From assembly GCA_965213925.1 (NCBI GenBank), contig OZ243927.1:4224001-4288000 (forward strand): a stretch of DNA of 64,000 nt. Reading direction: 5' to 3'. Below, in pieces: positions 1,707-21,959 of the stretch. Both the position numbers and the translations under genes were made by a program. A model generated the notes under the pieces. The model was given only the letters and a program-made list of their open reading frames with translations, made no database searches and was not told the DNA's origin. Numbering within the stretch: position 1 is the stretch's first letter; each line of letters begins with the position of its first letter. This stretch comes from Trueperaceae bacterium. GTDB lineage: Bacteria; Deinococcota; Deinococci; Deinococcales; Trueperaceae.

Positions 1707-1829
1707 GTACGGCTCCTTTGAAATGCTGCAACGTAGGGGTCGGGCAGCAGAGATCAGCGTAGCGAGACCAACTGCTAAATTCTGACTGACTACTTTATCT
1801 TCCTCCGCTGCTTCACGCTATCTTGCTGC

Positions 1830-2891: not shown

Positions 2892-3065
2892 GATTCAACC
2901 TCTTTAATGTGTTGGGTTTGAATAGGATTCACGAGAGGCATTGTACCTAGCTCGTCCACTCGCGCACCTCTTCACACTTTACGAAAGGAGGGGTGCGTGA
3001 AGTTTTTGACTCGAGTGCAACCCCTCGCTACGAATCTATACACCCCTATTCGGTATTCTTAACGT

Positions 3066-4220
3066 ATGAATCTACGCTCAACTTGGTGGACCGTCCCGTT
3101 CCTTTTCGCCCTCCTCACCGCTTGCGCTCCAACCGTTTACGACGAACCTTATCCGGTGGAAGAGGTCGTTTTACCTCGAGACGACGCCGCGCACCCCGCG
3201 CCTATCGAATGGTGGTACTACACGGGGCACCTAGACGCCGAGAGCGGCGAAGAGTACGGCTTCGAGCTAACCTTCTTCAAAGCGTATACGCCGCCGCAAA
3301 TCCAACTCTTCGGCTTCTACCCCGCGCACTGGCTCGTCGACAGAGGTCACGTCGGGCACTTCGCCGTGACGGACAAGTCCGAGGAGACCTTCACGATGGG
3401 CGAACGCGCCGACTTTTGGGGCTATGAGGCGGGCGCGAGCAGCGACGAGTTGGATGTTTATGTCGCAGAATGGAGCGCCGAACGCGCCGAGGACGGCGTG
3501 AGCCACCGCATCCAAGCGAAGGAAGGCGGCTACGAAATCGACCTCGTCCTGACCCCGATGAAACCTGCCGCGCTGCACGGTGACCCGCCCGGCATCCAGT
3601 CGATGGGACCGGGCGGCACGAGCTACTACGTCTCGTACACGCGCATGGCAGTCTCGGGCACCATCAAAACAGGCTGCGACTTCACGGGTTTCGCATGTAA
3701 GACGCAAGAGGTCTCCGGCACCGCTTGGCACGACCATCAGTGGGGCGACTTCGACGTGAGCAGCTATGCGGGCTGGGACTGGTTCAGTATGCAGTTCGAG
3801 GACAACACCGAGCTGATGGTCTACCTCATCCGTATGCCGGACGGCGAATACATCGCGCAGGCAGGCTCATTCATCACCGAAGGCGGGCGTACGTTGGAGC
3901 TAACTGAAGAGGATTTAGAGATCATCGAGACGGGCGAAACCTGGACGAGCGAGGCGACGGGCGCGGTCTACCCTATCGAATGGCGGGTGCGCGTGCCGAA
4001 GCACAGTATCGACGTAAACGTCGTCCCTGTGATTAAAAATCAAGAGATGGACACGCGGGCGTCCACGGGCATCGTGTATTGGGAGGGTGCGGTGGACCTC
4101 ACGGGCTCGCATACAGGCGACGGCTTTGTCGAACTGACGAACTACGACCTCTATCCGTATGGGATGACCGATGAGAACACGCCGTTGCAACCGCTGAGGG
4201 GACCGTTTGGCGGAGGGTAA
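3066..4220 (+). CDS. Lipocalin-like CrtC/AttH-family (hydratase-like) lipoprotein
   Basis: Lipobox LLTAC; motifs HPAPIEWWYYTG, SYYVSYTRM, WHDHQW, GWDWFS, YWEG, GFVELT. Confidence 0.8.
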   Translation: MNLRSTWWTVPFLFALLTACAPTVYDEPYPVEEVVLPRDDAAHPAPIEWWYYTGHLDAESGEEYGFELTFFKAYTPPQIQLFGFYPAHWLVDRGHVGHFAVTDKSEETFTMGERADFWGYEAGASSDELDVYVAEWSAERAEDGVSHRIQAKEGGYEIDLVLTPMKPAALHGDPPGIQSMGPGGTSYYVSYTRMAVSGTIKTGCDFTGFACKTQEVSGTAWHDHQWGDFDVSSYAGWDWFSMQFEDNTELMVYLIRMPDGEYIAQAGSFITEGGRTLELTEEDLEIIETGETWTSEATGAVYPIEWRVRVPKHSIDVNVVPVIKNQEMDTRASTGIVYWEGAVDLTGSHTGDGFVELTNYDLYPYGMTDENTPLQPLRGPFGGG

Positions 4221-4221
4221 A

Positions 4222-4325
4222 GCAGGTGAAAGAGAATAAGGACTGTTACGGAGTTTTTGCCAGAGGCAAAAGGACTGAGTAAAAGCCTTTCTTCTTCAGC
4301 CCTCAGTCCTTTCACCTTTTCTCTT
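4222..4325. repeat. Intergenic palindromic repeat, AGGACTG/CTCAGTC family, copy 1
   Basis: AAAGGACTGAG (4269-4279) pairs with CTCAGTCCTTT (4302-4312); related copies at about 37946 and 46707. Confidence 0.6.
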
Positions 4326-4398
4326 CGAAGTAGCGCCGCATCACTCGAAACGATATGCAGACCGCACATACTCCACCTTTTTCCCTTACAATACTCCG

Positions 4399-6633
4399 GT
4401 GACGAGCCTACGCGAGAGCGCCGCAACTTTTGGACTGTCTGACGAAGAATTTAGTGGCGTTATCGAAGCACTAGGACGCGAGCCGAACGCGCTCGAGGCC
4501 GCCATGTTCGGCGCACTCTGGAGCGAGCACTGCGGCTATAAGAACTCGAGACCTCTTCTTAAACGTCTACCCACCGAAGGTCCGCAAGTTTTACAGGGTC
4601 CGGGCGAGAACGCGGGCGTGGTCGATATCGGCGAGGGGTACGCCGTCGCCTTCAAGATGGAGTCGCACAACCACCCCTCCGCTGTAGAACCCGTGCAGGG
4701 CGCGGCGACGGGCGTGGGCGGAATTTTGCGCGACATCTTCGCGATGGGGGCGCGTCCGGTGGCGGTCTTGGACTCGCTCCGCTTCGGTGATTTAGATAAT
4801 GACCGTACCAAATACCTCTTGAACGGCGTCGTCCACGGCATCTCGCTCTACGGCAACGCGATTGGCGTGCCGACGGTCGGCGGCGACATCGCCTTTCACC
4901 CTTGCTATCAGGAAAACCCTTTAGTCAATGTGATGGCAGTTGGGCTCATGCGCCACGAGCAGCTTCAGTCGGGGACGGTAGGCGAAGTCGGCAACACGCT
5001 CGTCTATGTGGGTTCCAAAACAGGGCGTGATGGGCTCGGCGGCGCGGTTTTCGCCTCGGCGGACCTCTCGGAGCAGAGCGACGCGGATAGACCGGCCGTA
5101 CAAGTGGGCGACCCATTTATGGAGAAGTTGCTGCTAGAGGCGTGCCTAGAAGCCATAGAGCAAGACCTCGTCATCGGCGTGCAAGATATGGGCGCGGCGG
5201 GGCTGACCTCGTCGGTGGCGGAGATGGCGTACCGGGCAGGTCGAGGCATCGACTTTTATGTGGACAAGGTGCCGCGCCGTGAGACGGGGATGACACCTCT
5301 TGAAGTCCTCCTCTCCGAATCGCAAGAGCGCATGGTGCTCGTTCCCAAACCGGGCAAAGAGGCTGAACTCCTGAAGTTGCTGGGAAGGTGGGAACTCGAA
5401 GCCGTCATCGTTGGTGAGGTCGCGAGCCACGGGATGTTTCGGATTGTAGAAAACGGTGAGGTTGTCGGCGACATGCCCGTCGTCGCCCTGAATGAAGCGC
5501 CGACCTATACTCGAGAAGGCGTCGAGGACGAAGAGGTCCGCGCTAAGCGTGAACAGTCTATAGAGGTGGACGTTCCCGATAATTTGGAAGAGGTCTTGCT
5601 TAGGCTTCTCAGTAGCCCCACCATCGCTTCCAAGCGACCTGTTTTCGAGCAGTACGACCACCAAGTGATGACCAATACGGTGGTTCTGCCCGGTCAGGCT
5701 GACGCCGCCGTGTTGCGCGTCAAGGGAACCTCTCGCGGGATTGCCATGACCGTAGACTGCAACCCGCGCTACTGCTACTTAGACCCTTACGAGGGCGCGA
5801 AACTCGCCGTCGCCGAAGCCGCGCGCAACCTCGCGTGCGTGGGCGCGACGCCGCTGGCGATCACAGATAACCTCAACTTCGGGAATCCGACACGCTTAGA
5901 TGTTTACTATCAGATGGAACGCGCCGTCGAAGGGTTAAAAGATGCGTGTCTCGCGTTAGGAACCCCTGTCACAGGCGGCAACGTCAGCCTCTACAACCAG
6001 TACCGCACAACTCAAAGTCAGGCTGATGGACTGCGCGCCGTTCACCCCACGCCGAATGTCGGCATGGTCGGCGTCGTGCCCGATATTTCCAAACGAGCGA
6101 CGCAAGACTTCAAGCGAGATGGCGATATCATGATTCTCATTGGTGAAAGTACGGGCGACGGTACAGATGCGTTGGGCGCGTCGGAATACTTGGCGAGGTG
6201 GCACGCTCTAGAAATCGGGCGTCCGCCTGAGTTGGATTTGGAGCGTGCCAAAGCCCTCCAGGATGCGGTTTCTTCTGTAATTCAACAAGGCTTATGCGAC
6301 ACCGCGCACGACCTCTCCGAAGGCGGGCTCGCCGTGGCGCTCGCTGAGATGGTCATCTCCGGGCAAAAGGGTGTTAAAGTATCTCTGAAAGATGGCGTGA
6401 GGGCGGACGCGCTACTTTTCGGTGAGGGTCAGTCTAGAGTTCTCCTCGCATTAAGACCCGAAGTTGTCATCCCGGTGGAAACCCTCCTGACAAGCTACAA
6501 ACTCCCCTTTCAAACGCTTGGTAAAGTTGGCGGCAAGGGGCTCGAGCTAGAGCTACCAGATCAAACCGTAACCCTATCCCTAAAGACCCTGACCGAAACC
6601 TTTGAACAACCCTTGAGAGAGGCACTTGCATGA
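4399..6633 (+). CDS. purL: Phosphoribosylformylglycinamidine synthase subunit PurL (small form)
   Basis: WSEHCGYK, KMESHNHPS, DMGAAG, SESQERM, TDNLNFGNP, HDLSEGG. TACAAT lies 6 nt before the GTG start. Confidence 0.97.
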   Translation: MTSLRESAATFGLSDEEFSGVIEALGREPNALEAAMFGALWSEHCGYKNSRPLLKRLPTEGPQVLQGPGENAGVVDIGEGYAVAFKMESHNHPSAVEPVQGAATGVGGILRDIFAMGARPVAVLDSLRFGDLDNDRTKYLLNGVVHGISLYGNAIGVPTVGGDIAFHPCYQENPLVNVMAVGLMRHEQLQSGTVGEVGNTLVYVGSKTGRDGLGGAVFASADLSEQSDADRPAVQVGDPFMEKLLLEACLEAIEQDLVIGVQDMGAAGLTSSVAEMAYRAGRGIDFYVDKVPRRETGMTPLEVLLSESQERMVLVPKPGKEAELLKLLGRWELEAVIVGEVASHGMFRIVENGEVVGDMPVVALNEAPTYTREGVEDEEVRAKREQSIEVDVPDNLEEVLLRLLSSPTIASKRPVFEQYDHQVMTNTVVLPGQADAAVLRVKGTSRGIAMTVDCNPRYCYLDPYEGAKLAVAEAARNLACVGATPLAITDNLNFGNPTRLDVYYQMERAVEGLKDACLALGTPVTGGNVSLYNQYRTTQSQADGLRAVHPTPNVGMVGVVPDISKRATQDFKRDGDIMILIGESTGDGTDALGASEYLARWHALEIGRPPELDLERAKALQDAVSSVIQQGLCDTAHDLSEGGLAVALAEMVISGQKGVKVSLKDGVRADALLFGEGQSRVLLALRPEVVIPVETLLTSYKLPFQTLGKVGGKGLELELPDQTVTLSLKTLTETFEQPLREALA

Positions 6634-8057
6634 TTCCTTTGGACGTTTACGGTGACGTTGATGGTGACAAACCCCGCGAAGAGTGCGGCGTCTTCGCCGT
6701 GCACCTCCCTGAACCTGCAGATATCGCCGCGCTCTGCCATCTAGGGGTTTTCGCCCTCCAACATAGAGGTCAGGAGTCGTGCGGCATCTGCGTGTCGAAC
6801 GGTGAGGACATCGTCATCGAGAAGGACATGGGGCTCGTCGCGGAGGTCTTTACCGAGGAGCGTATCGAGAAGTTGCGCCTACCCAACATGCGTACGGGCA
6901 TCGGTCACACGCGCTACTCCACGACAGGCTCATCCTTACGCTTCAACGCCCAACCGCTGACGGTGCGCTCGAACAAAGGGCTCTTAGCGCTCGCTCATAA
7001 CGGCAACTTCACCAATGCTAAAGCGATTCGCGTTGAGATGCTGGGCAACGGCGCAGTCTTTCAAACCACCAACGACAGTGAAGTCATGATCAACCTCATC
7101 GCCCGCTACAGCCAACTCTCCTTAGAGGACGCCACCGCGCAGGTGATGAGCGAACTCGAGGGTGGCTTCGCCGTCGTCATCATGGACAAGACCAAGATCA
7201 TCGGGCTGCGCGACGCCAACGGGGTGCGACCTCTCGTCATTGGCGGATTAGAGGGCGGCTACGTCTTCGCCTCGGAGGTTTCTGCTCTCCATGTCATTGG
7301 CGCGTCATACCTGCGCGACGTGAAACCGGGCGAACTCGTCGTGGCGGATGACGCGGGCTTGCACTCGAGGCAAGTTTTAGAGCCTATCCCGACCCCCTGC
7401 GCCTTTGAGTGGATTTACTTTGCGAGAGGGGATGGGACGTTGGACGGGGCGGACGTGCACGCCTCGAGAATCCGCATGGGCGAAGTTTTAGCGGAAGAAT
7501 CTCCGACCGACGCCGACGTGATTGTTGGCGTGCCCGAGTCCGGCTTACCTGCTGCGATTGGGTACGCAAGGGCCTCGGGTATCCCCTTCGACTTAGGGCT
7601 TTATAAATCCCCTTACGCCGGGCGCACCTTCATCAACCCTACCCAAAGGCTGCGCGATCTCAAAGTCAAGCTCAAGCTCGCGCCCACCGCCGCTGTTAAG
7701 GGCAAGCGCGTCGTCTTAGTTGACGACTCCATCGTGCGCGGCACGACCTCGGGGCGCATCGTGCAGCTTCTCCGGGACGCCGGAGCTAAAGAGGTTCACT
7801 TTCGCGTCTCCTCGCCACCCATTAAATACCCCTGTTACTACGGCATCGACACGGCGGCGCGTAAAGAACTCGCGGCGGCGACGATGAGTGTGGAGGAAAT
7901 CTGTGAGCGCATCGGGGCGGATTCGCTCTCCTTTATCTCCGAAGCGGGGCTTTCAAAGGCGATTGGGCTGACGCGGACCTGTTTAGCTTGTTTTGATGGA
8001 GCGTATCCGGCGGGGGTGCCGGAGGAGGAGCAAGAGGAGAGTTTGGTGGCGGTTTGA
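6630..8057 (+). CDS. purF: Amidophosphoribosyltransferase
   Basis: Propeptide then EECGVF, LQHRGQES, GHTRYST, PRTase motif VLVDDSIVRGTT; ATGA overlap with purL. Confidence 0.97.
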   Translation: MIPLDVYGDVDGDKPREECGVFAVHLPEPADIAALCHLGVFALQHRGQESCGICVSNGEDIVIEKDMGLVAEVFTEERIEKLRLPNMRTGIGHTRYSTTGSSLRFNAQPLTVRSNKGLLALAHNGNFTNAKAIRVEMLGNGAVFQTTNDSEVMINLIARYSQLSLEDATAQVMSELEGGFAVVIMDKTKIIGLRDANGVRPLVIGGLEGGYVFASEVSALHVIGASYLRDVKPGELVVADDAGLHSRQVLEPIPTPCAFEWIYFARGDGTLDGADVHASRIRMGEVLAEESPTDADVIVGVPESGLPAAIGYARASGIPFDLGLYKSPYAGRTFINPTQRLRDLKVKLKLAPTAAVKGKRVVLVDDSIVRGTTSGRIVQLLRDAGAKEVHFRVSSPPIKYPCYYGIDTAARKELAAATMSVEEICERIGADSLSFISEAGLSKAIGLTRTCLACFDGAYPAGVPEEEQEESLVAV

Positions 8058-8063
8058 AGGCTG

Positions 8064-9611
8064 CTAACTCTCCATCCTCAAATTGTAGAATATTTCTAGT
8101 TGGGTTTTAACTTTCTCTCTTAGGTCATTCGTGTCATCTGCCGTTAGAACCTGAAATGACTTGATGTTGAAACCCACGTCCTTTGAGAAATCGCTGCCCG
8201 AAATTGACTTGTTGTGAACCAGTATAAAGTTGTCTTGGCTCAAGCCAGCCCCTTTATTGGCACCCATTAGGTAGCCGATTTCATGATAGACATTTTTGTT
8301 TCCGAGAGAGAGGTCAGCAATAAGTAAGCCGCTGTCGTAAATTAGTTGCAGTATCTCACTATCAATCTCGTAAGAATGCCCTTTAAGATACTCATCAATT
8401 CGTATCTCCCGAAGTTCCAGGTCGAGCTTATGCTCCGTGTTTACGTCATTGACAGCATTCATGATTGCTGTATGGTTCGACTTCGTTTCGGAGCTAAACT
8501 GCATTGAAACGAAAATGGTTCTTTTCTTCGCCTCGAGCACACAATTGAAGATTTTGATGAGTTCTTTAGCGTCGGTGTTTTTGGTTTGATAAAGATGATT
8601 TTTGAGCACCCAGTTTGTAAAAACATTCAAGGTCAACTTAGATTTGAAAGCGTAGTAGATGAACGCAGTGAGTAGCCCCTCGTTAGGGTTCCGATAGAGT
8701 CTTTCGTCGCTATAAATTTCGTTGACCGCAGCCAAATGTTTCTTGAAAACATCCAGCTCATCACCTACCTGTAATAAACCACCGTCTAGCAGAAGTTGAA
8801 ACGAGTTGAGCAGGAAGGTGCGCTTAATGCACGCGCTCTCCTGTGGGTCAAGCACTGCCTTAATGTTTTGCAACATTGATAAATTCCAGCTCAGCAGCAT
8901 CTTTCGCGCTAAGACGTAAGATTCACCGAAGGATTTTCTGAGAACATCGTCAGAGAAAAGCGCTTCGTCTTCGAGAATCAGTTTAAGGCTTTGCTCCATC
9001 GTCAGGGCGATTTGGCGAAAGTTGATGTTGTGAAATAGTGCCCGGCTATACCTCTTCAACTCATCGTCTGACCGAAAAAGAACTAAGCAAAACGGCACGT
9101 TGTAGTTGCTGAACTTCTGACGTAACTCTTCGTCTAAACTGTCGCCATGATTCGTGAGAACGCTTAAACGGTGATTGCCGTCTATACGGTGAAACTTGGA
9201 GAAGTTGCTACTCTCCTCGAGCAGCGCATCATCAATCATCAGCCTTGTCCTTCGAAAGTAAATCTTTGAGCGCAATTCGTTAGGGCTTGAACGGCTTGTG
9301 ATGTAGTCCCTGAGCGTGAACTCAGTAAATTCATGTTTTGCGCCTTTGTCACCCTGCAGCGCTAAAATAAAGTCATTTACTCCGCCCAGATTACTACCGT
9401 CATCTAGGCTTGCTCCTAAGATGACCTCGGGAAAGAAAAGGAAACGCTCCTCATTCAAAAAATCAATCATCTCCTGACGATGCTCCGTAATCAGGTCGCG
9501 CTGATAGCTCTCGTCAGGCGCTGAGATTTTGTCCAAATCCCCCAATGACGCAAAGCCGCGCAAGCAGATGAAGTTACCCAGCGAGTTATCTAAGACCCCT
9601 TCTAAAATCAC
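8064..9611 (-). CDS. DGQHR/DndB-like domain fused to a nucleoside 2-deoxyribosyltransferase/TIR-like domain; putative defence effector
   Basis: N-half has YQR, FPEVIL, IDGNHRL, LFHNIN. C-terminus has IFVSMQF...RIDE...LLIADLSLGNKNVYHEIGY. AT-rich; GTG start overlaps the TGA of the upstream specificity gene. Confidence 0.7.
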   Translation of the reverse strand: MILEGVLDNSLGNFICLRGFASLGDLDKISAPDESYQRDLITEHRQEMIDFLNEERFLFFPEVILGASLDDGSNLGGVNDFILALQGDKGAKHEFTEFTLRDYITSRSSPNELRSKIYFRRTRLMIDDALLEESSNFSKFHRIDGNHRLSVLTNHGDSLDEELRQKFSNYNVPFCLVLFRSDDELKRYSRALFHNINFRQIALTMEQSLKLILEDEALFSDDVLRKSFGESYVLARKMLLSWNLSMLQNIKAVLDPQESACIKRTFLLNSFQLLLDGGLLQVGDELDVFKKHLAAVNEIYSDERLYRNPNEGLLTAFIYYAFKSKLTLNVFTNWVLKNHLYQTKNTDAKELIKIFNCVLEAKKRTIFVSMQFSSETKSNHTAIMNAVNDVNTEHKLDLELREIRIDEYLKGHSYEIDSEILQLIYDSGLLIADLSLGNKNVYHEIGYLMGANKGAGLSQDNFILVHNKSISGSDFSKDVGFNIKSFQVLTADDTNDLREKVKTQLEIFYNLRMES

Positions 9612-11044
9612 GCCGCCTCACCTAAGATCATGGCTTCAACTTCACGCTTAGCTTGCTCTAAAGTATTACTTGCTTCGCCTCGTAACTGCTTTGCCTTGAG
9701 TCTAATTGAAGCTATCTCTTGCGCAATAGTTTGCTGTTCCATAAGAGAGGGTAAAGGAATATTTACCTGCGCAAGCGCATCATTGTTGACACCCGATTGG
9801 TTGTTCCAGTTTGTGCAAATTTTGAAGAAAACTTTTCGCCGCTGATACATATTGAGCAAAGCTGTCAGGTAACGAGGTGAAACTACGTTCTCATTGAGAC
9901 TAATGCGCGTGATGTGATTGGAGCAGAAATAATCACCGTCTAAGTCAAATAGTACAGTTTTTCCCACCAGCTCTTGACTGTTAGTGTTGTTGAAAAGCAC
10001 CTCATTTCGTCTCAGTAAATCGTTTTCATGATGTTCTTTTTGCACGTAGTCAATTAGTACGTTCTTTTCAAATATTAACTCTCTCGCGGGACTGATGTTT
10101 GTAGGACGTATCTGAACAATGCCTTCAGATTGCCTTGCCTGGTCTTGCTTCCCGGCAGCAAAGCCCGTCTGAAGGTGTTGTACAACGTCTTTCAATCGCT
10201 CCATAGGATAAGTCGAGCCTTCAAGCATCTTATAAACACCTTGCGTATGAAATAGCGGGTCTAATCTACTACCCGTAACATCGCTGAGTTTCCGGTAAAA
10301 GACTCGATTCTGCAAATCGTTTTTTTCCTCGAGCGGCTTTTCGATACCTAGAGCCTCGAGCAGGTAATCATCTATCCCATCTAAAAGCTGCTGAGCGGCG
10401 GCTTCTTTTTGTTTTTTCAACTCGTAGGCAGCGTTAATCTTAGCTACTACATTCTCTTGTACCTCTTTTGATGGCAAAGGGATAGGTAGACTTTTATATT
10501 CTTCTGCGTTTATGTTTGGCTGTCCTGCTGCACGTTGCACTGCTTGAACCCACTTCTGATATACGCCAAGCTGAGTGAATGCAAAGAGGTAGTCTGGGCT
10601 TATCAGCTCAGAATTCACAACGAGACGAATCATATAACCAGCAAAAAAACATGGGTAGTCAACTGATTCAGTTTTATGTATGTACGCTTTGCCTACTGTG
10701 GCACCACTCCGAGCGAACAGAAGATCGTTGTTTTCGAGTAGATACTGATCTTCTATAACGTCTGCTGTAACACCAACTTCGTTTCTCAAAAGACCATATT
10801 CATCAACATCCGTAATCCTGATATATCTCGGTTCGTCTAAACTCAATCTTTCTTTCCCCGGCTCATTGGCTCCATACTGAGGTTTCTTCTGTAAAAGCGT
10901 CCCGAGTTTTCTGGGCTCGAACTTGTAGTGCGTAATAGTTCTGTTGTATAGAACCATTAAAGGGTCAAATCTAGCTTGAAGCTCGCTGAGATTAGCTATA
11001 AAAATTTTCGGCTCGTCTGTACTTATTGAAAGCTCAAAACTCAC
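9608..11044 (-). CDS. Restriction-modification specificity subunit (HsdS-like, two target-recognition domains)
   Basis: Two TRDs (YIRITD...DLLFARSGATVGK...QPNIN...PIPLP and IRPTNI...EVLFNNTNSQELVGK...IPLPSLMEQQTI), each followed by a helical conserved region. Confidence 0.9.
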   Translation of the reverse strand: MSFELSISTDEPKIFIANLSELQARFDPLMVLYNRTITHYKFEPRKLGTLLQKKPQYGANEPGKERLSLDEPRYIRITDVDEYGLLRNEVGVTADVIEDQYLLENNDLLFARSGATVGKAYIHKTESVDYPCFFAGYMIRLVVNSELISPDYLFAFTQLGVYQKWVQAVQRAAGQPNINAEEYKSLPIPLPSKEVQENVVAKINAAYELKKQKEAAAQQLLDGIDDYLLEALGIEKPLEEKNDLQNRVFYRKLSDVTGSRLDPLFHTQGVYKMLEGSTYPMERLKDVVQHLQTGFAAGKQDQARQSEGIVQIRPTNISPARELIFEKNVLIDYVQKEHHENDLLRRNEVLFNNTNSQELVGKTVLFDLDGDYFCSNHITRISLNENVVSPRYLTALLNMYQRRKVFFKICTNWNNQSGVNNDALAQVNIPLPSLMEQQTIAQEIASIRLKAKQLRGEASNTLEQAKREVEAMILGEAA

Positions 11045-13173
11045 GCTTGCCCCTGCTCAACAGCCCGAATGAACCTGCTCAACTCCTCACCTATCGCCCC
11101 AAGCTCACTGTTATGCGTCTCTTTACCCGTCGCGTCATAACCGATGTCTTCGGCTATCGCCATGAGTATCGGGTAATCGTCTAAGACCTCTTGTTTGCGC
11201 TCGTCGTAGCTTTCTAGTAGCTCTTCTTTTAGCGCATCTACCTGCTGCCTGTAATATTCGCTCACCTCTTTGCGCCAGTCCTTGTAAGCTTGGTTGTCGC
11301 GTAACGCCTTGCCGCTCAAATCTTGCGCGTTGTCAAAGCCGCGCAGCTCGGCGAGGTGCTGCTTTTTCGCGTCGTCAATCTCTTGTAATCGTTGCAAATA
11401 GTCGTGGTCAGTGAGGATGTCACTCTGCAGGGAGGCTTTTTGCTGTTTGATGCGTTCGGTGGCCGCCTCGTCGTGCTTTCTCAGGAAAAGCACGGAGCTT
11501 TTGACGCCTGCGCCCGTCGCGGTAAAGGCGGTCTGGGGCATACTGACAACGGCTACGACGCGGTACATCTCTTCGATATTGTCGCGTACGTATTGGAGGC
11601 TCGAGTTCGTCAGGATGCCGTCGGGCACGACCATTGCTAAGTAACCGCCCGCTTTTAAGAAGTTGTGACACTGTTCTATAAAGAGAACTTCGGTGCTTTG
11701 GTTGGGGCGCTCGCTGCGCTTGCTCTTGGGGTCGAGCCAGCTCCCTTCTTTGTAGGCAAAGCCGTAGTTGCCCATGTAAGCCTGCTCGGTTTGTTTAACA
11801 ACGGAGCCAAAAGGCGGATTGGTGATGACAAAGTCAAAGGTCCCGTAGGTGAAGCCTTGATTTTTAGTACGGTTGTAGATGTCCTCACCGCTGATGAGCC
11901 CGTCTGCTGCGATGACGTTGGTGTGTCCGTCGTCGTGAATGATCATGTTCATCTTAGCAACCCTAGCGATTTGCTCGTTGATTTCAATACCGAAGAGGTT
12001 TTTCTCGGCGAACGTGTGCCAATGTCGGTAGTGATTTCTACCTTCAGGCGTTTTCTCGTCTCCGATTTCATTAGGGTAGTAATCATCTGCTTCACGTCTT
12101 ACTTTGTCTAGCGCATGAAGTAAAAAACCACCACTACCGCAGGAGGTGTCTAATACTTTTGACGTATGAGTTATAGGTAGCACATCAACAATGAACCTAA
12201 CAATAGGGCGTGGTGTGAAGTACTGTCCAAAATCTCCCCTGAAAAATGACCCCATAAATGTTTCAAAGGCTCGCCCTTTGCTATCTAAGTCAGTTTCTCC
12301 TAAATTTACACTCTGTAAGTACCCCACGACTGTACGTAATTTGTCAGCGCTCAAACGTATGTCTTCCTTAAAGACCTCAGTGTCCCTCTTGCGACCTTCT
12401 TGGTAAAGGGATTCAATCCGTTTAAGTAGCTCTTGATTTGTCTTCCCCTCAGTGTCTTCTTGAAAAATTTGGAACTTATAGGGCTCACCTGATTTACAGT
12501 TTCGCTCATCCCAGATTTTGCAGAAGATGAGTTTATCTAGCTCATCAAAGGCTGACGAAGGGTTGAGTTCGCCGCCACCCCATAAAGCTTGATGTGCTTG
12601 CTTGAAGCACCTAGTTAATTCACCTTCTTCAACCACTTCTAAGTCAAAAAACCTTTGACCGTTCGGAGTTGTACCACCACCCTTGACGTATTTGTACTTC
12701 GCAATATTGGTGACACCGTACTGGGGAATGTCAGGGATGGTCAGACGGTCTTTAGGCTTCTTTTTGGGGACTTCGTAGTAAACATCTTTGATTCCTGACG
12801 TAACCCACACGTACCTAGCGCCCTCAGCTACGGCGTAGCTAAACGCTTGTTCAACGGCTTGCTTGAACTCGAGTTCTGAAACGTCTTCCTTTTTGCACTC
12901 CACAACGATATGAGGAGAAAGGTGCTGGTCATCGTTGTAGACGATGATGTCGGCTTCGCGTTGGCTCGAGCCCATCGTCACGCTCACGAAAGAGCGTATC
13001 CTGTTAGGCGAATATCCGTAGGTGAGAATAAGCTTTAAGAAGGTTTCTGCTTGTACCTTCTCTTCCGGGTTAGCGTAGTTGCGGCGTCTGTTCTCATTCA
13101 GATAAACAACGTTTTTCTTGTCGTTGTCAATTAGAATAAAATTTTGCTTCACACCGTGTTCTATTAGGTTCAT
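11041..13173 (-). CDS. Fused restriction endonuclease (HsdR-N-like PD-(D/E)XK) and N6-adenine methyltransferase
   Basis: N-terminal EEKVQ...EADIIVY...IVVECKK nuclease motif; MTase motifs GQYFTPR, DTSCGSGGFL, NPPF. No helicase or motor domain. Confidence 0.88.
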   Translation of the reverse strand: MNLIEHGVKQNFILIDNDKKNVVYLNENRRRNYANPEEKVQAETFLKLILTYGYSPNRIRSFVSVTMGSSQREADIIVYNDDQHLSPHIVVECKKEDVSELEFKQAVEQAFSYAVAEGARYVWVTSGIKDVYYEVPKKKPKDRLTIPDIPQYGVTNIAKYKYVKGGGTTPNGQRFFDLEVVEEGELTRCFKQAHQALWGGGELNPSSAFDELDKLIFCKIWDERNCKSGEPYKFQIFQEDTEGKTNQELLKRIESLYQEGRKRDTEVFKEDIRLSADKLRTVVGYLQSVNLGETDLDSKGRAFETFMGSFFRGDFGQYFTPRPIVRFIVDVLPITHTSKVLDTSCGSGGFLLHALDKVRREADDYYPNEIGDEKTPEGRNHYRHWHTFAEKNLFGIEINEQIARVAKMNMIIHDDGHTNVIAADGLISGEDIYNRTKNQGFTYGTFDFVITNPPFGSVVKQTEQAYMGNYGFAYKEGSWLDPKSKRSERPNQSTEVLFIEQCHNFLKAGGYLAMVVPDGILTNSSLQYVRDNIEEMYRVVAVVSMPQTAFTATGAGVKSSVLFLRKHDEAATERIKQQKASLQSDILTDHDYLQRLQEIDDAKKQHLAELRGFDNAQDLSGKALRDNQAYKDWRKEVSEYYRQQVDALKEELLESYDERKQEVLDDYPILMAIAEDIGYDATGKETHNSELGAIGEELSRFIRAVEQGQA

Positions 13174-13438
13174 TAGCTTGTAATAATAACGTTTTTGAGC
13201 AGTCCTGGTATCATCTCAAAGATGAAGCAACCATGTTCCTCTCACTATTCCAAGAGTCTCCTACCGTATCTCCCGCGCCAGCAACCCTATTCCTGAAAGG
13301 ACCTCATGACCCGCCAACAGGTCCTCGAGAAAACCAAACACCTCCACGCTTTAGATGACGAGGCGCTCGAGCCAACCAACGCCATCCTCTAAAAAGGCTA
13401 CACTAAGGGCTACAAATACTACCTTCAAGGAGGTCACG

Positions 13439-13698
13439 GTGAAGCGTGTCGGTATCCGCGAATTCAAAGACAAAGCCACACCGCCCTGATTGCCGAAGAG
13501 AAGGGTTTGGTTATCGAGAAGCACGGCAAACCTGTCGGGTTTTATATTCCGCTTCCCAAAAAGGACAAGGTAAAGACGAAAGAGGCGGCGCGGAGGCTCG
13601 AGCACACCATCGAAGGTATTTTAGAGCGCACGGGCATGAACCGCGCCGAACTCGAGGCGGCTTGGGACGAGGCGGAGCGCGTCTCGAGTCTTCAATAA
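13439..13698 (+). pseudogene. Phd/YefM-like antitoxin, frameshifted
   Basis: RBS GGAGG then GTG 13439 reads MKRVGIREFKDKA and stops at 13487-13489. The continuation TALIAEEKGLVIEKHGKPVGFYIP is in another frame, with the break at GCCACACCGCC (about 13475-13485). Confidence 0.7.
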
Positions 13699-13704
13699 AG
13701 TAGA

Positions 13705-14262
13705 ATGAACTCTATGGTAGCAGGCGCACCCAAACACACCTTCACAGCAGATGAATTTCTGCGGCTCGCCGAGCTTAACTTCTTCGGTGAGGGCGAGCGC
13801 GTCGAGCTTTTAGAGGGGGAAATCTACCACATGTCGCCTACCGGTCCTTCTCACGGCGCGGCAGTAGCTCGCCTTCACGAGCGTTTACTCCTTGCCCTTG
13901 TCGGGCGTACCATCCTCTGGAACCAGTCCTCGGTACGTTTGGGTATATCTATGCCAGAACCCGACTTAGCGCTTCTAGTACCTAAAGCTGACTACTACGC
14001 AAGCGCAAATCCTGAACCGGAGGACATTTTGCTTGTAATTGAGGTGGCGCAAACCTCTTTAGCCTACGACCGCGCTAAGCTCGCTATTTACGCTCGTAAC
14101 GGCGTGCAAGAGGTGTGGATTGCTGACCTTGATGGTGAGTTGCTCGAGGTCTACCGAGAACCGGGCGCGGGTACGTATAGAACTTCGTTCGCCCTGAACT
14201 TCAACGAACCGCTGAGTCCGCTCGCGTTTCCTGATGAAGCTGGGGTGTGGTTGGGTCAATAG
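13705..14262 (+). CDS. Uma2 family (DUF820) putative endonuclease
   Basis: FTADEF, RVELLEGEI, PEPDL, LLVIEVAQTSLAYDR, KLAIYARNGVQEVWIADL. Confidence 0.92.
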   Translation: MNSMVAGAPKHTFTADEFLRLAELNFFGEGERVELLEGEIYHMSPTGPSHGAAVARLHERLLLALVGRTILWNQSSVRLGISMPEPDLALLVPKADYYASANPEPEDILLVIEVAQTSLAYDRAKLAIYARNGVQEVWIADLDGELLEVYREPGAGTYRTSFALNFNEPLSPLAFPDEAGVWLGQ

Positions 14263-14265
14263 CGG

Positions 14266-14889
14266 CTACTGCATCTCCCGCGCCAAGAGCCCCGTCGTCG
14301 AAACCAGCACCGCGTAACGCTTAGGTTCCCTCGCCGGCACGAATGTCGCGGAGCCGTAGCGGGCGTCCACGAGGGTTTCTAAGGGCTCGTAGCGCTGCAC
14401 CATCCTGAACATGTCTAGCTCGAGCGGCTTCTCCTGCGCCAACGAATACACCGTGCGCGGACGGGTCTGCTCGTCGTCCAAAAGGTCATAGCGCCCTGCC
14501 ACCCGGTCGAGTTCGTACATCGTGCGCAAGCCTAAAAGGTTCGCCCTCGGATGCCACTTGAGGATGTGCGCGTCAACGAAGAGAGCGTCGCCTGCAAGCT
14601 CAAACGTCTCGGTTCTGCCGTCTGGAAATTCGAACACGGCGCGGTAGCGCTGCGTACCAAGAGGTTCGATGGAAACCGTCGCCGCTACCGTCTCCTGGAT
14701 GAGCGACTGATACCCTCTCGTCGCGACGCTCACCAAGCCCGAAGCCGCCGCGATGACGAAGAGGGCAAGGCTGAGAAACCCTCTAAAGGTTGCGCTTCCC
14801 CAGTGCCGTTTCCGGGAGGCGAGCACCGCGTAAACCAGCAGCACGAGCGCGAGCAGCGCGGGTACCCAGGTGAGCAGCGTGAGCATCAC
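14266..14889 (-). CDS. Hypothetical membrane protein (two N-terminal TM helices)
   Basis: Clean ORF with hydrophobic N-terminus; TAAAAT 7 nt upstream of the GTG. Confidence 0.75.
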   Translation of the reverse strand: MMLTLLTWVPALLALVLLVYAVLASRKRHWGSATFRGFLSLALFVIAAASGLVSVATRGYQSLIQETVAATVSIEPLGTQRYRAVFEFPDGRTETFELAGDALFVDAHILKWHPRANLLGLRTMYELDRVAGRYDLLDDEQTRPRTVYSLAQEKPLELDMFRMVQRYEPLETLVDARYGSATFVPAREPKRYAVLVSTTGLLAREMQ

Positions 14890-14913
14890 ACTGTGAATTT
14901 TACAGTATGAAGA

Positions 14914-15858
14914 TTAGAGCGCGTCTTCCGCCTCTTCGGTGGGCGGCCACGACCCGCCGAGTCTGAGCCACGCCTCGACCATATCGGTAGGCACTTGCGC
15001 GGAGAAGGTGATGGCGTGATTGTCCTGCGGGTGCGGCAGCGTGAGGCGGTGGGCGTGCAGCGCGTGGCGGGAGATGGTTGAGGAGCCTTTGCCGTAAACG
15101 CCGTCCCCTAAGATGGGTGCGCCCAAATGCGCCAGATGCACGCGAATCTGATGCGTTCGCCCCGTGTGCGGCTTCGCTCTGACCAAAAGGTAGCCGTTCG
15201 CCCGCGCCAACACCCGGAAGTACGTCGTCGCGCTCCTCGGGTTGTTGCCGCCGACCATCATCTTGCGCCCGTGGACGGGGTGCCGCCCGATGGGTCCGTC
15301 CATATAGAGGTCGTCATCTAGCTTGCCCACGGCAATGGCGATGTACTCCTTTTCCGTGAGGCGCTTTTTGAACGACTTGGAGATGTGGCGGTGCGCCTCG
15401 TCGCGCTTGGCGACGACCATCACGCCGGAGGTCTCCTTGTCTAAACGGTGGACGATGCCGGGGCGGTAGTCTTCGGCTTCGGGGTCAAAGGCTTTATCTT
15501 TGGCGAGTTCGACGCGGCCTAGAAGGGCGTTCACGACGGTGCCTGTTCGCAAGGAGGCGGTAGGGTGCGCCGTCATGCCGGGCGGCTTGTTGATAGCGAT
15601 GAGGTCGTCGTCTTCGTAGATGATGTTCAAAGGGACCTCTTCGGGCTCGACCATCATCGGCTTAGGGGGCGGCAGCATCACCGAGACGAGTTCGGCTCCT
15701 GAGAGCTTGGTGGCGGGTTTGGCGACGGGTTGCCCGTTCAGTTGCACGTAGCCCTCGCTCACGAGTTCTTTGGCGTAGGTGCGACTGGTCTCCAGCTCTA
15801 AAGAAATCGCCACGTCCAACCGTTCGCCTGCAGGCGCTTCGAAAACACGAAAATCCAT
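14914..15858 (-). CDS. RluA/RluD family pseudouridine synthase with S4 domain
   Basis: RLD S4 motif, INKPPG, GIVHRLDKETSG, TGRTHQIRVH, LHA. Start placed at ATG 15858, 7 nt after TAGACT. Confidence 0.92.
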   Translation of the reverse strand: MDFRVFEAPAGERLDVAISLELETSRTYAKELVSEGYVQLNGQPVAKPATKLSGAELVSVMLPPPKPMMVEPEEVPLNIIYEDDDLIAINKPPGMTAHPTASLRTGTVVNALLGRVELAKDKAFDPEAEDYRPGIVHRLDKETSGVMVVAKRDEAHRHISKSFKKRLTEKEYIAIAVGKLDDDLYMDGPIGRHPVHGRKMMVGGNNPRSATTYFRVLARANGYLLVRAKPHTGRTHQIRVHLAHLGAPILGDGVYGKGSSTISRHALHAHRLTLPHPQDNHAITFSAQVPTDMVEAWLRLGGSWPPTEEAEDAL

Positions 15859-15915
15859 TGGGTCTAGTCTACCGCGAGAGTATGAAAAGTGGGGCAAAGT
15901 GGTCCTTGAAAAGGC

Positions 15916-15988
15916 GTAGTCAGTAACCAGTAGTCAGAATTCAGCACGAAATCCTCCTGACTACTGAATTCTAACTACTGACTACTGC
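15916..15988. repeat. Heptamer-built inverted repeat (AGTAGTC / GACTACT units)
   Basis: TAGTCAGTAACCAGTAGTCAGAATTCAG ... CTGACTACTGAATTCTAACTACTGACTACTG between the divergent RluA/RluD-family gene and plsX. Confidence 0.6.
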
Positions 15989-16033
15989 TCCCCCGAATAG
16001 CCAAACCCCACCCTCTCATTTATAATGCTCCCA

Positions 16034-17050
16034 ATGAAACCGATAGCGTTAGATGCGATGGGCGGGGACGCGATGCCGGAGGCGGCTGTGGAGGGAGCTT
16101 TGCAGGCGCAAGAGGCGGGCATCCCCATCGTTTTGGTAGGCAATGAAAATAAACTTCAAGAAACGATAGGTGGGCGCGGCGAGTTGCAGGTTCACCACGC
16201 GGGCGACGTGATGACGATGAACGACGCGGCGTCGGACGTGCGCAGGAGAAGAGACTCGAGCATCATGAAAGCCATGTCTTTAGTGAAAGAGGGCGGCGCG
16301 TCGGCGTGCGTCTCGATGGGGCATTCCGGCGCAACGATGGCGGCGGCGCTGCTCGTGTTGGGGCGTCTCAAAGGCGTGGAGCGTCCGGCGATTCTCGCGA
16401 ATATTCCGGCGGGAAATGGTTTTACGGCGCTCGTAGACGCGGGCGCGAACGCGGACTGCCGACCTGCACATCTTCAACAGTTCGCGGTGATGGGCTCGGT
16501 TTATGCCCGCGCTTTCTACAGCAAAGCGGAGCCGAGCGTGGGGCTCATGTCCATCGGGGAAGAGGAGGAGAAGGGCAACGAACTCACCCGCGCGGCGCAC
16601 GGACTCCTCAAAGAAACCCCCAACATCGCCTTTTACGGCAACGTCGAAGGGCGCGACCTCTTGAAAGGTACAACCGATGTCGTTGTGACAGACGGCTTTA
16701 CGGGCAACGTCATGCTCAAGCTGGCAGAAGGCGAAGCGAAGGCGATTTTCGGCTGGCTGCGCGAGGGGCTCGCGGGCGGCAACCTCTTCACGAAGCTCGG
16801 CGCGGCGCTCGTCAAGCCTGCGCTTAAAGGCGTGGCGGCGCGGCTCGACCCCTCGGAGTACGGCGCGCAACCGCTTCTGGGCATCAGCGGTCACGCTTTC
16901 ATCGGTCACGGCTCTGCCGACGCGAGAGCGGTGCTGAACGCGCTCCACACGGCGCGGCGAGCGGTGGACGCGCAGCTCGCCGAGAGGATTGCTACAGGGC
17001 TAGAGGTATTGAGCGCATCTAAACGTGAAGTTGCGCACTCGGAAGAATAA
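16034..17050 (+). CDS. plsX: Phosphate acyltransferase PlsX
   Basis: IALDAMGGD, ERPAI, DAGANAD, GEEEEKGN, DVVVTDGFTGNV, YGAQPLLG. TATAAT at 16021-16026 is 7 nt before ATG 16034. Confidence 0.95.
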   Translation: MKPIALDAMGGDAMPEAAVEGALQAQEAGIPIVLVGNENKLQETIGGRGELQVHHAGDVMTMNDAASDVRRRRDSSIMKAMSLVKEGGASACVSMGHSGATMAAALLVLGRLKGVERPAILANIPAGNGFTALVDAGANADCRPAHLQQFAVMGSVYARAFYSKAEPSVGLMSIGEEEEKGNELTRAAHGLLKETPNIAFYGNVEGRDLLKGTTDVVVTDGFTGNVMLKLAEGEAKAIFGWLREGLAGGNLFTKLGAALVKPALKGVAARLDPSEYGAQPLLGISGHAFIGHGSADARAVLNALHTARRAVDAQLAERIATGLEVLSASKREVAHSEE

Positions 17051-17171
17051 GTGAGGGAAAAGATAGCCCTTTCACAGTGACTCCTCAAAGGCGCATTATA
17101 CGCTTAACGGGCGAGGGGTAGGGATATGTAGCTATAGCGGTTATCATAATCGCTGAGGTTGAGGTGAAGGC

Positions 17172-18608
17172 ATGTCAGTAACACCGTCCACAACACCAGA
17201 GGCGACGACGCCAGATGCGGCGCCAGATGCAGGCTCAGGTGCGGCCAGCTCGGATGCGGCTGGGTCTAGCACGACGGGGACCGACTCAACGGGCTTAGGC
17301 TTGCCGGGATTCGGCGGCGAGTCAGCGCCGGAGACAGACCCTACGTCAACCTGGTTCAGCGATCCCACGTGGTTCGACGAGATTGAAGACACCACCTGGC
17401 TCACCGAGTTAGGGGCGACGATAAGCAGCGACCCGCTCGCCTTCACCCTACAGGTTTTAGCGGACGCCGGTATCGCTCTGGTGCTCTTCTTGATGCTCTG
17501 GTTTATCGTCTCACGCTGGAGCCGCTCGTCGCTGCGCACCATAGAGCAGCGCGAGCTGTGGGACGAGGGCCGCAAGGAAGCTGAGCGCCTCCGCACGGTG
17601 CTGTTAAGGCGCTACCTCGCAACGGCGTCAGCAGGACTCGGCACCGCGCTCTTTTTGGGTCTCTTCGCCTTTCGCTACAACGTGCCCATCTTGCGCGGTA
17701 TGGCGGTCGCCGTGCGCGACTGGCTGGCGGGCGGCGGCATCGGGCGCGTGCTCAGCATCGTCGTCGTCGGGCTTATCATCTGGACGCTGCTGCGCGTGGT
17801 GCGCAAAGCGGCGCGGGCGCTCACGCCCACCGAAGGGCAACGCTTCGAGCGGCAGGTGGCGCGGGCGGCCACGATCCGCAGCGTCGTCGAGTCGGCGGCG
17901 CGCATCGTCCTCGTTACGCTCTTTATCCTCTTCGTGTTAGGTCAGCTCGGCACGAACATCACTGCGCTTTTAGCGGGTGTGAGTATCCTCGGCTTAGCCG
18001 TCTCGTTCGGCGCGCAGTCGCTCGTCAAGGACGTCATCACGGGTTTTTTCATTCTCGTCGAAGACCAGTTCGGCGTGGGCGACGTGGTCACGATCGCGGG
18101 GCTCACGGGGCTCGTCGAGCAGATCAACTTGCGCATCACCACCTTGCGCGACCTAGAGGGGCGCGTCCACGTCATCCCGAACGGTCAAGTCGATAAAGTC
18201 ACCGTGATGAGTAAGGAGTGGTCACGCAGCGTCATCGACCTCGAAGTGGCCTACCGCACCGACCTCGACCACGCGCTCAAGGTCATCGGCGAAGAAGCCG
18301 AAGACTTCGCCGACGCGCTCGGCTGGAGCTGGCGCGTGATGGGTTCGCCCGAAGTGCTAGGCGTCGAGCGCTTCGGCGCGTCGGGCATCGCGATTCGCAT
18401 CCTCTTCAAGACGCTGCCCAAAGAGCAGTGGGGCGTGGGGCGCGAGTTCCGCAAGCGCATCAAAGCCCGCTTTGACCGCGAGGGCATCGAGATTCCCTTT
18501 CCGCATACGACGCTCTATTGGGGCGAGGAGCAGATGCCTAAGATACAGGGGGATAGCCGGGCTTCGGGTACGCCGCAGTTGGGGCGGGAAAGCGTGAGTA
18601 CGGACTAA
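17172..18608 (+). CDS. Small-conductance mechanosensitive channel (MscS family) with N-terminal extension
   Basis: GLAVSFGAQSLVKDVITGFFIL, FGVGDVV, LRITTLRD, IPNG, IEIPFP. Confidence 0.92.
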   Translation: MSVTPSTTPEATTPDAAPDAGSGAASSDAAGSSTTGTDSTGLGLPGFGGESAPETDPTSTWFSDPTWFDEIEDTTWLTELGATISSDPLAFTLQVLADAGIALVLFLMLWFIVSRWSRSSLRTIEQRELWDEGRKEAERLRTVLLRRYLATASAGLGTALFLGLFAFRYNVPILRGMAVAVRDWLAGGGIGRVLSIVVVGLIIWTLLRVVRKAARALTPTEGQRFERQVARAATIRSVVESAARIVLVTLFILFVLGQLGTNITALLAGVSILGLAVSFGAQSLVKDVITGFFILVEDQFGVGDVVTIAGLTGLVEQINLRITTLRDLEGRVHVIPNGQVDKVTVMSKEWSRSVIDLEVAYRTDLDHALKVIGEEAEDFADALGWSWRVMGSPEVLGVERFGASGIAIRILFKTLPKEQWGVGREFRKRIKARFDREGIEIPFPHTTLYWGEEQMPKIQGDSRASGTPQLGRESVSTD

Positions 18609-21816: not shown

Positions 21817-21959
21817 GTTGCAACTTACCATCTTACGCGGTTAAGACAGCGAGCGGACGTGCGCATACATCAACCTCTCGACTTCCGCGCTATACTTCTC
21901 TATCTCGAGCCCCAAGTCGGCTCTTCTTTTTTACCCTTTCTAATCTTGGAGTAACACCT

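Follow-up and report, generated by a model that had tools for sequence, protein, structure and literature searches.

The 64,000-nucleotide stretch of DNA considered here (the window) comes from a Trueperaceae bacterium (contig OZ243927.1, positions 4,224,001 to 4,288,000) and carries on its minus strand a horizontally acquired defence operon of three overlapping genes (Table 1). The first two genes encode a restriction-modification (RM) pair, made up of an RM subunit with nuclease and methyltransferase domains (M, gene 1) and a specificity subunit (S, gene 2). The third gene (gene 3) encodes a protein that joins a DGQHR/DndB-like domain of predicted ParB fold to an all-helical middle region and a C-terminal domain resembling nucleoside 2-deoxyribosyltransferases (NDTs).

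Both gene junctions read GCGTGA, with the TGA stop codon of the upstream gene and the GTG start codon of the downstream gene sharing 4 nt, and a Shine-Dalgarno-like GGTGAGG lies 4 nt ahead of the gene 3 start. The purF gene is convergent with the operon; its TGA stop ends at position 8057 and that of gene 3 starts at 8064, leaving a 6 bp gap. The guanine-plus-cytosine (GC) content is 0.456 across the three-gene block (0.444 in gene 3, 0.428 in S and 0.484 in M), as against 0.587 (3000-8057) and 0.608 (13705-18600) in the flanks. A first-pass annotation of this DNA, made from the sequence alone, had described three minus-strand genes joined by two GTGA overlaps in an AT-rich block that ends 6 bp from the purF stop, and the coordinates and base composition confirm that description. 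The low GC content of the block and the scattered phylum labels on a tree of gene 3 relatives fit horizontal spread. A tRNA scan for an integration site returned zero tRNA genes in the window, and a promoter and terminator scan of positions 7800-13800 gave counts that were not above those of shuffled sequences.

Table 1. Positions in the window of the three genes, their junctions and the domains of their products
Feature	Position	Strand	Description	Source
Gene 1, RM subunit (M)	11041..13173	-	710 aa, ATG start	Open reading frame (ORF) list
Gene 2, specificity subunit (S)	9608..11044	-	478 aa, GTG start	ORF list
Gene 3	8064..9611	-	515 aa, GTG start	ORF list
GTGA overlap, gene 1 stop/gene 2 start	11041..11044	-		Read from sequence
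GTGA overlap, gene 2 stop/gene 3 start	9608..9611	-		Read from sequence
Nuclease domain of gene 1	12724..13068	-	Residues 36-150; D75, E92, K94	Pfam HSDR_N_2
Methyltransferase domain of gene 1	11245..12285	-	Residues 297-643; motif I DxxCGSGGF, motif IV NPPF	Pfam N6_Mtase
N-terminal domain of gene 3	8967..9611	-	Residues 1-215	QR, DGNHR and FxxxN motifs; AlphaFold2 model
Middle all-helical domain of gene 3	8541..8966	-	Residues 216-357	AlphaFold2 secondary structure
C-terminal NDT-like domain of gene 3	8067..8540	-	Residues 358-515	Profile matches to nucleoside 2-deoxyribosyltransferases

The restriction-modification pair

The gene 1 product consists of an N-terminal PD-(D/E)xK nuclease, a helical connector and a gamma-type N6-adenine methyltransferase, with Pfam matches to HSDR_N_2 (2.2e-16) and N6_Mtase (5.7e-37) over the ranges given in Table 1 and a PADLOC match to MTase_I (PDLC03030, 2.2e-195). 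The gene 2 product matches Methylase_S of Pfam (2.8e-20) and Specificity_I of PADLOC (1.9e-52), in each case over two stretches, and is an HsdS-type subunit with two target recognition domains (TRDs). A nuclease-methyltransferase fusion and a two-TRD specificity subunit are what the first-pass annotation had proposed for these two genes, and the family matches bear it out.

The closest solved structure to the gene 1 product is that of RM.BsaXI (8w0p, E = 1.2e-39), which it matches over residues 28-573, a range that spans the nuclease, connector and methyltransferase. A second, small match to RM.BsaXI lies at the C-terminal DYPILMAIAEDIGY motif, and a C-terminal DYPI(L/F)MA..GY motif is common to the two proteins. 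BsaXI is described as a type IIB enzyme of (RM)2S composition encoded by a two-gene system (PMC11997821). Like the window pair, it combines a separate two-TRD S subunit with an RM subunit in which nuclease (N-terminal, PD-(D/E)xK), helical connector and N6-adenine methyltransferase form one chain; the window pair has, in addition, a coupled and conserved third gene. Cleavage by BsaXI is reported to require E73, D90, E105 and K107 of the N-terminal nuclease domain and also two residues, D816 and E823, of a C-terminal 'paddle' (PMC11997821). In the alignment with RM.BsaXI, E92 and K94 of the window protein fall on E105 and K107, D75 lies two positions away from D90 within an ungapped stretch, and no counterpart of E73 was identified. 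RM.BsaXI has 916 aa, and its homologs of less than 800 aa are predicted to be without the paddle (PMC11997821), so that the shorter window protein belongs to the short, presumably paddle-less group.

Related loci were taken from a scan of one genome per species, which gave 231 relatives of gene 3, of which the best 80 loci were kept. At least 98% of the 64 M proteins obtained from these loci retain D75, E92 and K94, and in a 35-row alignment of M these residues are invariant, as are motif I (D342 and C345-F350) and the NPPF motif (N452-F455). No HsdR helicase-nuclease gene was found among 89 operon-neighbour ORFs of the related loci, and the 55 other ORFs of the window gave no REase_I or HsdR-like match. 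MADS was tried as an identity for the pair and rejected: M resembles MAD2 and S resembles MAD5, with PADLOC mad2 and mad5 matches, but the NCBIfam scores (304.3 bits for M and 92.1 bits for S) are far under the cut-offs of 720 and 400, and the operon holds no other mad genes. Taken together, the absence of an HsdR-like gene, the likeness to BsaXI and the sub-cut-off MADS matches indicate that genes 1 and 2 are best read, from sequence comparison, as a complete short-form BsaXI-like type IIB RM system rather than as a type I system minus its R subunit. Such a pair needs no HsdR and would therefore be complete on its own, and the two subunits probably assemble as (RM)2S; as a type IIB enzyme, it would cleave both DNA strands on each side of a bipartite site.

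Domains of the third protein

Relatives of gene 3 comprise 1128 proteins at E <= 1e-3 among 8000 candidates scored, and the family includes 521 representatives of 50%-identity clusters at this threshold, 167 of them at E <= 1e-30. Some sources label relatives 'DGQHR domain-containing' or 'DndB', and many relatives carry a precomputed PF14072 assignment. Longer fused forms of gene 3 were absent from the output of a search that the tool itself rates as weak evidence. In an alignment of 73 gene 3 sequences (72 related loci and the window) the conserved positions form two blocks, one N-terminal and one C-terminal. The AlphaFold2 model of the full-length protein has a predicted local distance difference test (pLDDT) value of 82 and a predicted template modelling (pTM) score of 0.54, and a PDB sequence-profile search with the full-length protein gave 0 matches at E <= 1.

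The N-terminal conserved block consists of Q37-R38, F59-F-P-E62, R142-I-D-G-N-H-R148 and F193-x-N-I-N197. The signature motifs of DGQHR domains are given as a QR pair, DGQHR and FxxxN (PMC4619093). All three have a counterpart in gene 3: the Q37-R38 pair is kept in 72/73 sequences, D144 in 72/73, and G145, N146, H147 and R148, as well as F193 and N197, in 73/73, with the pentapeptide reading DGNHR, that is with N in place of the Q of DGQHR. A Pfam scan of 31 relatives found DndB (PF14072) in seven, with a best value of 1.2e-6, and GmrSD_N in four. When modelled by itself, the N-terminal domain has a pLDDT of 85.8 and a pTM of 0.82, and the top three Foldseek matches of this model are the N-domain of pNOB8 ParB (5k5d being the best), with probabilities of 1.00, 1.00 and 0.96 and E values of 0.011-0.051; Noc and sulfiredoxin rank below them. 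A PDB sequence-profile search with the N-terminal domain gave 0 matches at E <= 10.

The middle domain is predicted to be helical, with helices running across residues 205-362, and its conserved positions are F219, L224, F228, G229, R236, F331 and W334. A HEPN identity for this domain was considered and rejected, there being no Rx4-6H among the conserved residues as judged by eye, with no profile test.

The C-terminal block comprises F367, D433 and N440-V-x-x-E444-x-G446, of which N440, V441, E444 and G446 are kept in 73/73 sequences; D433 is conserved in at least 90% of 32. Searched against the PDB, a profile built from residues 358-515 matches NDTs, namely 2a0k (E = 9.2e-5), 6qai (0.0019) and five further NDT sequences, and also the CMP N-glycosidase MilB (0.25) and Rcl (1.9). 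In the alignment with 2a0k, IADL...NVyhEiGya is placed on IADL...tAFEvGcA, such that E444 falls on the NDT glutamate and IADL on the preceding aspartate strand. NDTs have their catalytic glutamate, a nucleophile, in a motif of G-x-x-x-E-x-G type that follows a conserved aspartate strand, and the gene 3 sequence agrees with this placing. The catalytic residue of LlNDT is reported to be E98 (preprint 10.1101/2023.08.16.553469). The Pfam scan of 31 relatives found PF05014 in 2/31 (best 0.0018), and in neighbour clusters of a protein atlas DndB or Nuc_deoxyrib_tr is annotated in a minority of members (PF05014 in 14-26%), which provides leads only. Pfam gave no GmrSD_C or HNH (DUF1524) match for gene 3 or for the 31 relatives.

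The first-pass annotation had called gene 3 a DGQHR protein with an NDT/TIR-like domain and had set it apart from standard RM components. Both statements hold: the three motifs are conserved and the NDT profile match is the strongest for the C-terminus, and gene 3 matches no standard RM family in Pfam, PADLOC or NCBIfam. Marginal TIR signals do exist, as given below with the points to be weighed against an NDT function, and the NDT assignment of the C-terminus is better supported than the TIR one.

DndB of the Dnd systems belongs to the same domain family as gene 3, as the PF14072 matches of gene 3 relatives indicate, and DpdB of the Dpd system, which we take to be a DGQHR-family protein, is comparable. 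Gene 3 differs from both in its added NDT-like domain and in its DGNHR pentapeptide, and neither dndCDE nor dpd genes were found in the 89 neighbour ORFs of related loci. The relationship does raise the prospect that gene 3 is a DndB-like regulator that would bind DNA and a nucleotide ligand, with the NDT-like domain as the ligand sensor and not an enzyme, and would hold methylation or operon transcription in check. According to earlier work cited in PMC10853773, DndB regulates phosphorothioation negatively, with ATP as a modulator, and the position of gene 3 as the last gene of its operon would suit such a role. However, the invariance of the NDT catalytic glutamate and its motif in 73/73 sequences argues for catalysis and against a pure regulator, no helix-turn-helix or other regulator family was detected in gene 3 by Pfam or NCBIfam, and gene 3 almost always accompanies the M-S pair, whereas roughly half of Dnd systems are said to have no DndB (PMC10853773). 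A purely regulatory function is regarded as very unlikely.

Linkage to the pair and genomic surroundings

The full count of linkage was limited to the 63 related loci in which the gene 3 homolog is preceded by at least 4.5 kb of DNA. Of these, 59 have both M and S homologs on the same strand; 54 loci follow the order M-S-gene 3 and 3 the order M-gene 3-S, and in the remaining 2 S was seen by Pfam alone. The first-pass annotation had named in advance a lack of linkage between gene 3 homologs and RM genes as the finding that would speak against its proposal, and the reverse was found. Among the 17 loci with shorter upstream DNA, 11 have as much of M and S as their contig has room for (8 with both, 3 with S only) and 6 have neither; in L056 and L074 a Hypoth_Ymh gene instead lies directly upstream of gene 3. 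With starts set by a longest-ORF rule, S and gene 3 overlap by 4 nt in 40/54 adjacent pairs and by 1 nt in 2, and M and S overlap by 4 nt in 13/55. The arrangement is not a chance juxtaposition, because both the 4-nt overlap of S with gene 3 and the presence of M and S recur in related loci.

M proteins of the related loci are 40-98% identical to each other. Pairwise distances of M and of gene 3 over 62 shared rows are correlated (Pearson 0.73, with 0/2000 Mantel permutations as high), a correlation that is evidence of co-inheritance and not of contact. A quick tree of the 73 gene 3 rows, which bear 14 phylum labels in all, needs at least 24 label changes. No relative of gene 3 was found in a phage collection. 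Among 72,556 plasmids there is a single M homolog above 33% identity (58.5%), which lies on plasmid NZ_CP109788 of Leisingera thetidis and is fused with part of gene 3. Identity in the other 20 matches is 27.7-32.9%. The Leisingera coding sequence (L081, 5864-8107), annotated as a 747-aa 'N-6 DNA methylase', corresponds to about residues 110-487 of M, at 58.5% identity, followed by about residues 140-511 of gene 3, at 43% identity. There is no S gene and the methyltransferase domain is partial, and the fused sequence is therefore probably a deletion remnant of the three-gene unit.

Departures from the common arrangement are of several kinds. A Mutator-family transposase (5020-6309) occupies the M position in L032. 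L041 (5143-7998) and L044 (5044-7977) lack a separate S gene and have M proteins of 951 and 977 aa, respectively; M of L044 ends in a Methylase_S domain, and in both loci M and S appear to be fused. In L073 an Eco57I-like methyltransferase of 1156 aa (1774-5244) lies upstream of gene 3 in place of M, and the gene 3 tree puts this locus in a nested position next to one with the usual M-S-gene 3 order. Gene 3 itself is split or truncated in L036, L044, L055 and L065; M is kept in L044, L055 and L065 and an intact S in L036, L055 and L065, the upstream DNA of L036 being too short to show M. The near-constant linkage argues against gene 3 as a casual guest, and gene 3 looks more like a fixed third component of one M clade than like an occasional, PrrC-like one.

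Same-strand neighbours of the three genes in other genomes include the restriction genes Mrr_cat, GmrSD and McrBC, the toxin and abortive-infection genes AbiEi/AbiEii, BrnT, ParE and a Zeta-like kinase, and also RhuM, Schlafen/AlbA2, LA2681-like HEPN, Cap4 nuclease and integrases; such defence and integrase neighbours mark these surroundings as defence islands. Some loci carry genes wedged into the unit (L013, L025, L026, L052, L060, L061, L063, L064, L068, L071 and L077), which are YhcG/DUF1016 where the insertion separates M from S, and Hypoth_Ymh, DUF5655, a Zeta-like kinase or unknown ORFs where it separates S from gene 3.

These observations bear on the possibility that gene 3 is an integral restriction subunit of a new RM architecture, supplying the function of the missing paddle either as an NTP (nucleoside triphosphate)-dependent ParB-like clamp that would position the nuclease or through attack by the NDT domain on the bases of unmethylated DNA. 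Near-obligate linkage to one M clade (59/63 loci and 1/1 close plasmid homolog), translational coupling of S and gene 3 in 40/54 pairs and the correlated M and gene 3 distances are what an integral subunit would produce, and so is the insertion of YhcG, Hypoth_Ymh and DUF5655 genes among M, S and gene 3. Type I hsdM/S/R operons likewise take inserted accessory genes. The two paddle residues are essential in BsaXI and are predicted to be missing from homologs as short as the window M (PMC11997821), and NDTs cleave base-deoxyribose bonds, with an action on DNA having been proposed for them (PMC3710099). On the other hand, BsaXI-type enzymes are described as functioning as two-gene systems (PMC11997821). 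Full conservation of the M nuclease triad means that a separate cutting activity is not required, which argues against gene 3 as the only cutter, and loci with a broken gene 3 keep M and/or S. No characterised NDT-fold enzyme is known to act on DNA; their substrates are free nucleosides or nucleotides. An integral restriction subunit is accordingly held to be rather unlikely.

A further reading takes the third subunit to be a DNA-directed N-glycosidase or base-exchange enzyme and the operon to be a new RM class, a ParB-driven 'restriction glycosylase' with no relation to R.PabI. Loading of the NDT domain onto DNA, at unmethylated sites marked by (RM)2S, would fall to a DndB/DpdB-like NTPase domain, bases would be excised or swapped, and the PD-(D/E)xK domain would then process the lesion. 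Such a chemistry is considered improbable.

Two plasmids hold distant relatives of the pair, composed of an HSDR_N_2-methyltransferase protein (27.7-29.3% identical to M) and an S protein, in which a different, translationally coupled third gene starts at the S stop. On the Klebsiella plasmid NZ_LR890357 (L082, 5848-13593) the third gene encodes 263 aa with no Pfam family and is followed by two DUF262 genes; on the Flammeovirga plasmid NZ_CP076130 (L084, 5929-11311) the third gene encodes an ABC-ATPase/OLD-TOPRIM protein of 568 aa. Such variety hints that 'M-S-X' may be a general design, with interchangeable partners joined to a type IIB-like module.

Elsewhere in the window, a second AT-rich island (19455-21831, minus strand, GC 0.429) contains three genes joined by 1-nt start/stop overlaps that encode a D12-class Dam-like N6-adenine methyltransferase (307 aa), a MutH/MvaI_BcnI-like endonuclease (201 aa) and an N6_N4 methyltransferase (282 aa), and it looks like an ordinary type II RM system with two methyltransferases. 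Directly past the operon, at 13705-14262 on the plus strand, there is a gene of host-like GC content for a Uma2-family putative endonuclease (Pfam 6.1e-32). The interval between gene 1 and the Uma2 gene (13306-13698, plus strand) has short ORF pieces of 28, 44 and 63 aa in different frames, the longest of them without a Pfam match. Together they resemble a small gene of antitoxin type that has been frameshifted. An ORF of 247 aa at 24993-25736 on the minus strand has a partial PADLOC match to the mad2 methyltransferase (2.7e-16, residues 27-143) and is probably an unrelated S-adenosylmethionine-dependent methyltransferase.

Proposed role of the third gene

The preferred reading, at a probability of about 0.4, is that gene 3 encodes an RM-coupled N-glycosidase effector gated by its ParB-like NTP/DNA-binding domain. 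The S subunit would read a bipartite site, and M would methylate adenine on self DNA and cut unmethylated DNA by means of its N-terminal PD-(D/E)xK domain. Gene 3 would be built like GmrSD, SspE and BrxU, in which a ParB-fold NTP/DNA-binding domain of the DGQHR/DUF262 type is followed by a helical linker, with an N-glycosidase of the nucleoside 2-deoxyribosyltransferase kind taking the place of the HNH nuclease of the GmrSD-type layout. The ParB-like domain would sense the state of the DNA or of the RM complex and gate the NDT domain, which, with Glu444 as nucleophile, would cleave the N-glycosidic bonds of nucleotides, either deoxynucleoside and nucleoside monophosphates (dNMP/NMP) or compounds like nicotinamide adenine dinucleotide (NAD). 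When restriction alone fails, cleavage of nucleotides may starve phage replication or arrest the cell. While the gene identities, the conserved motifs and the conserved operon are observations, we infer the physical association of gene 3 with the RM enzyme, its substrate, its trigger and the outcome. A back-up role as sensor-effector, acting by abortive infection or by nucleotide or NAD depletion, is suggested by the identity of the domains, as the first-pass annotation had also supposed.

Comparison with characterised systems supplies the parts of this proposal. GmrSD, BrxU, SspE and TgvAB have at their N-terminus the ParB-like fold predicted for gene 3, with QR, DG(Q/N)(Q/H)R and FxxxN motifs; a helical region comes next, and the effector is C-terminal. 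Like the three-gene unit, they are often situated beside a DNA-modification system. Their effector is a DUF1524 HNH nuclease, whereas the putative one of gene 3 is NDT-like; and gene 3 is partnered by a type IIB RM enzyme predicted to make N6-methyladenine, whereas the partner in GmrSD/SspE-type systems is phosphorothioation or none. SspE reportedly couples the sensing of self-modification to an attack on DNA. The retron Ec86 (Retron-Eco1) has an NDT-like antiphage effector that is reported to need dimerisation and to act on adenine derivatives (10.1101/2023.08.16.553469). The likeness of that effector to gene 3 is one of domain kind, not of a sequence comparison of the two, and its partners are a reverse transcriptase and multicopy single-stranded DNA rather than an RM enzyme. 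PrrC is an effector inside the EcoprrI type I RM locus that could act once restriction has been neutralised; it is an ABC-ATPase anticodon nuclease and a guest of only some type I loci. Gene 3 has no similarity to PrrC and is the near-constant partner of one type IIB-like clade rather than an occasional guest. MANTIS/Gao_RL was also considered as an identity for the three genes and rejected.

GmrSD-like TgvAB, embedded in a Vibrio type I RM cluster and targeting hypermodified phages (PMC11411939), provides a precedent for another explanation, in which gene 3 is an independent, type IV-like partner that rides in the RM operon and acts against phages that escape restriction by modifying their DNA. 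Its route would be the hydrolysis of modified nucleotides such as hydroxymethyl-dNMPs, and the profile matches of the C-terminal domain include MilB and Rcl besides NDTs. The NDT-fold enzymes MilB and DNPH1 hydrolyse modified nucleotides of this kind. The DUF262/DGQHR-type domain found at the N-terminus of gene 3 is described as being used by modification-dependent enzymes (PMC4619093), and the presence in L073 of a different, Eco57I-like methyltransferase indicates that gene 3 can change partners. Guests of this kind, however, usually occur both in and outside RM clusters, as described for TgvAB (PMC11411939), whereas 59/63 gene 3 loci keep the same M clade. The correlated distances of M and gene 3, the lack of a match in the phage collection and the occurrence on plasmids of only a remnant likewise run counter to an independent partner, which is deemed unlikely.

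A number of points weigh against an RM-coupled N-glycosidase effector. Gene 3 has no match in Pfam (E <= 0.01, DndB and NDT families included) or in NCBIfam release 20. Foldseek comparison of the whole model with the PDB gave only weak flavodoxin-like and TIR-APAZ matches, none at E <= 1e-3, and that of the N-terminal domain likewise gave no match at this threshold, so the fold matches named above are weak ones. The C-terminal TIR signals are marginal, consisting of a PADLOC TIR match (0.0034), CAP12 TIR matches in 2/31 relatives (best 0.029) and a match to Cap12 7un8 (E = 0.96). Near-obligate linkage is unlike that of PrrC-type back-up effectors and fits an integral subunit equally well, and the linkage counts start from gene 3 alone and cover the 80 best of the 231 relatives. 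By the Spearman measure, the correlation of M with gene 3 distances is no more than 0.31, and a correlation of this sort can arise from relatedness alone. Loci in which gene 3 is broken beside M and/or S indicate that the RM part may work without it. Binding of gene 3 to the RM complex is also something that we infer only; a complex prediction for residues 1-640 of M with residues 1-357 of gene 3 scored 0.21 against a mark of 0.32, run without controls, and is neither for nor against binding.

With regard to novelty, the arrangement is absent as a catalogued system from PADLOC-DB v2.0.0 (2023), NCBIfam release 20 and Pfam, in keeping with the first-pass annotation, which had put it forward as a candidate undescribed system; the marginal TIR effector match was the only one that PADLOC-DB gave for gene 3. 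No description of an M-S-DGQHR/NDT unit was found in the full-text literature, a search that most subscription journals lie outside, and recent catalogues may already list it under a name. RM-linked fusions of a ParB-like domain with an effector are, as a general idea, already in print (PMC3632139, PMC3710099), ParB-like COG1479 domains fused to effectors having been proposed to act as RM-linked cell-death modules (PMC3632139).

The three-gene unit is widespread, the gene 3 family having 521 clusters at 50% identity and the 73 compared rows 14 phylum labels, and none of the curated libraries queried has a name for gene 3. If gene 3 is an RM-coupled N-glycosidase, it would represent a new effector chemistry in restriction-linked immunity and a case of a ParB/DGQHR domain gating something other than a nuclease. 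The 'M-S-X' design, in turn, would open to testing the way in which RM systems acquire second-line functions.

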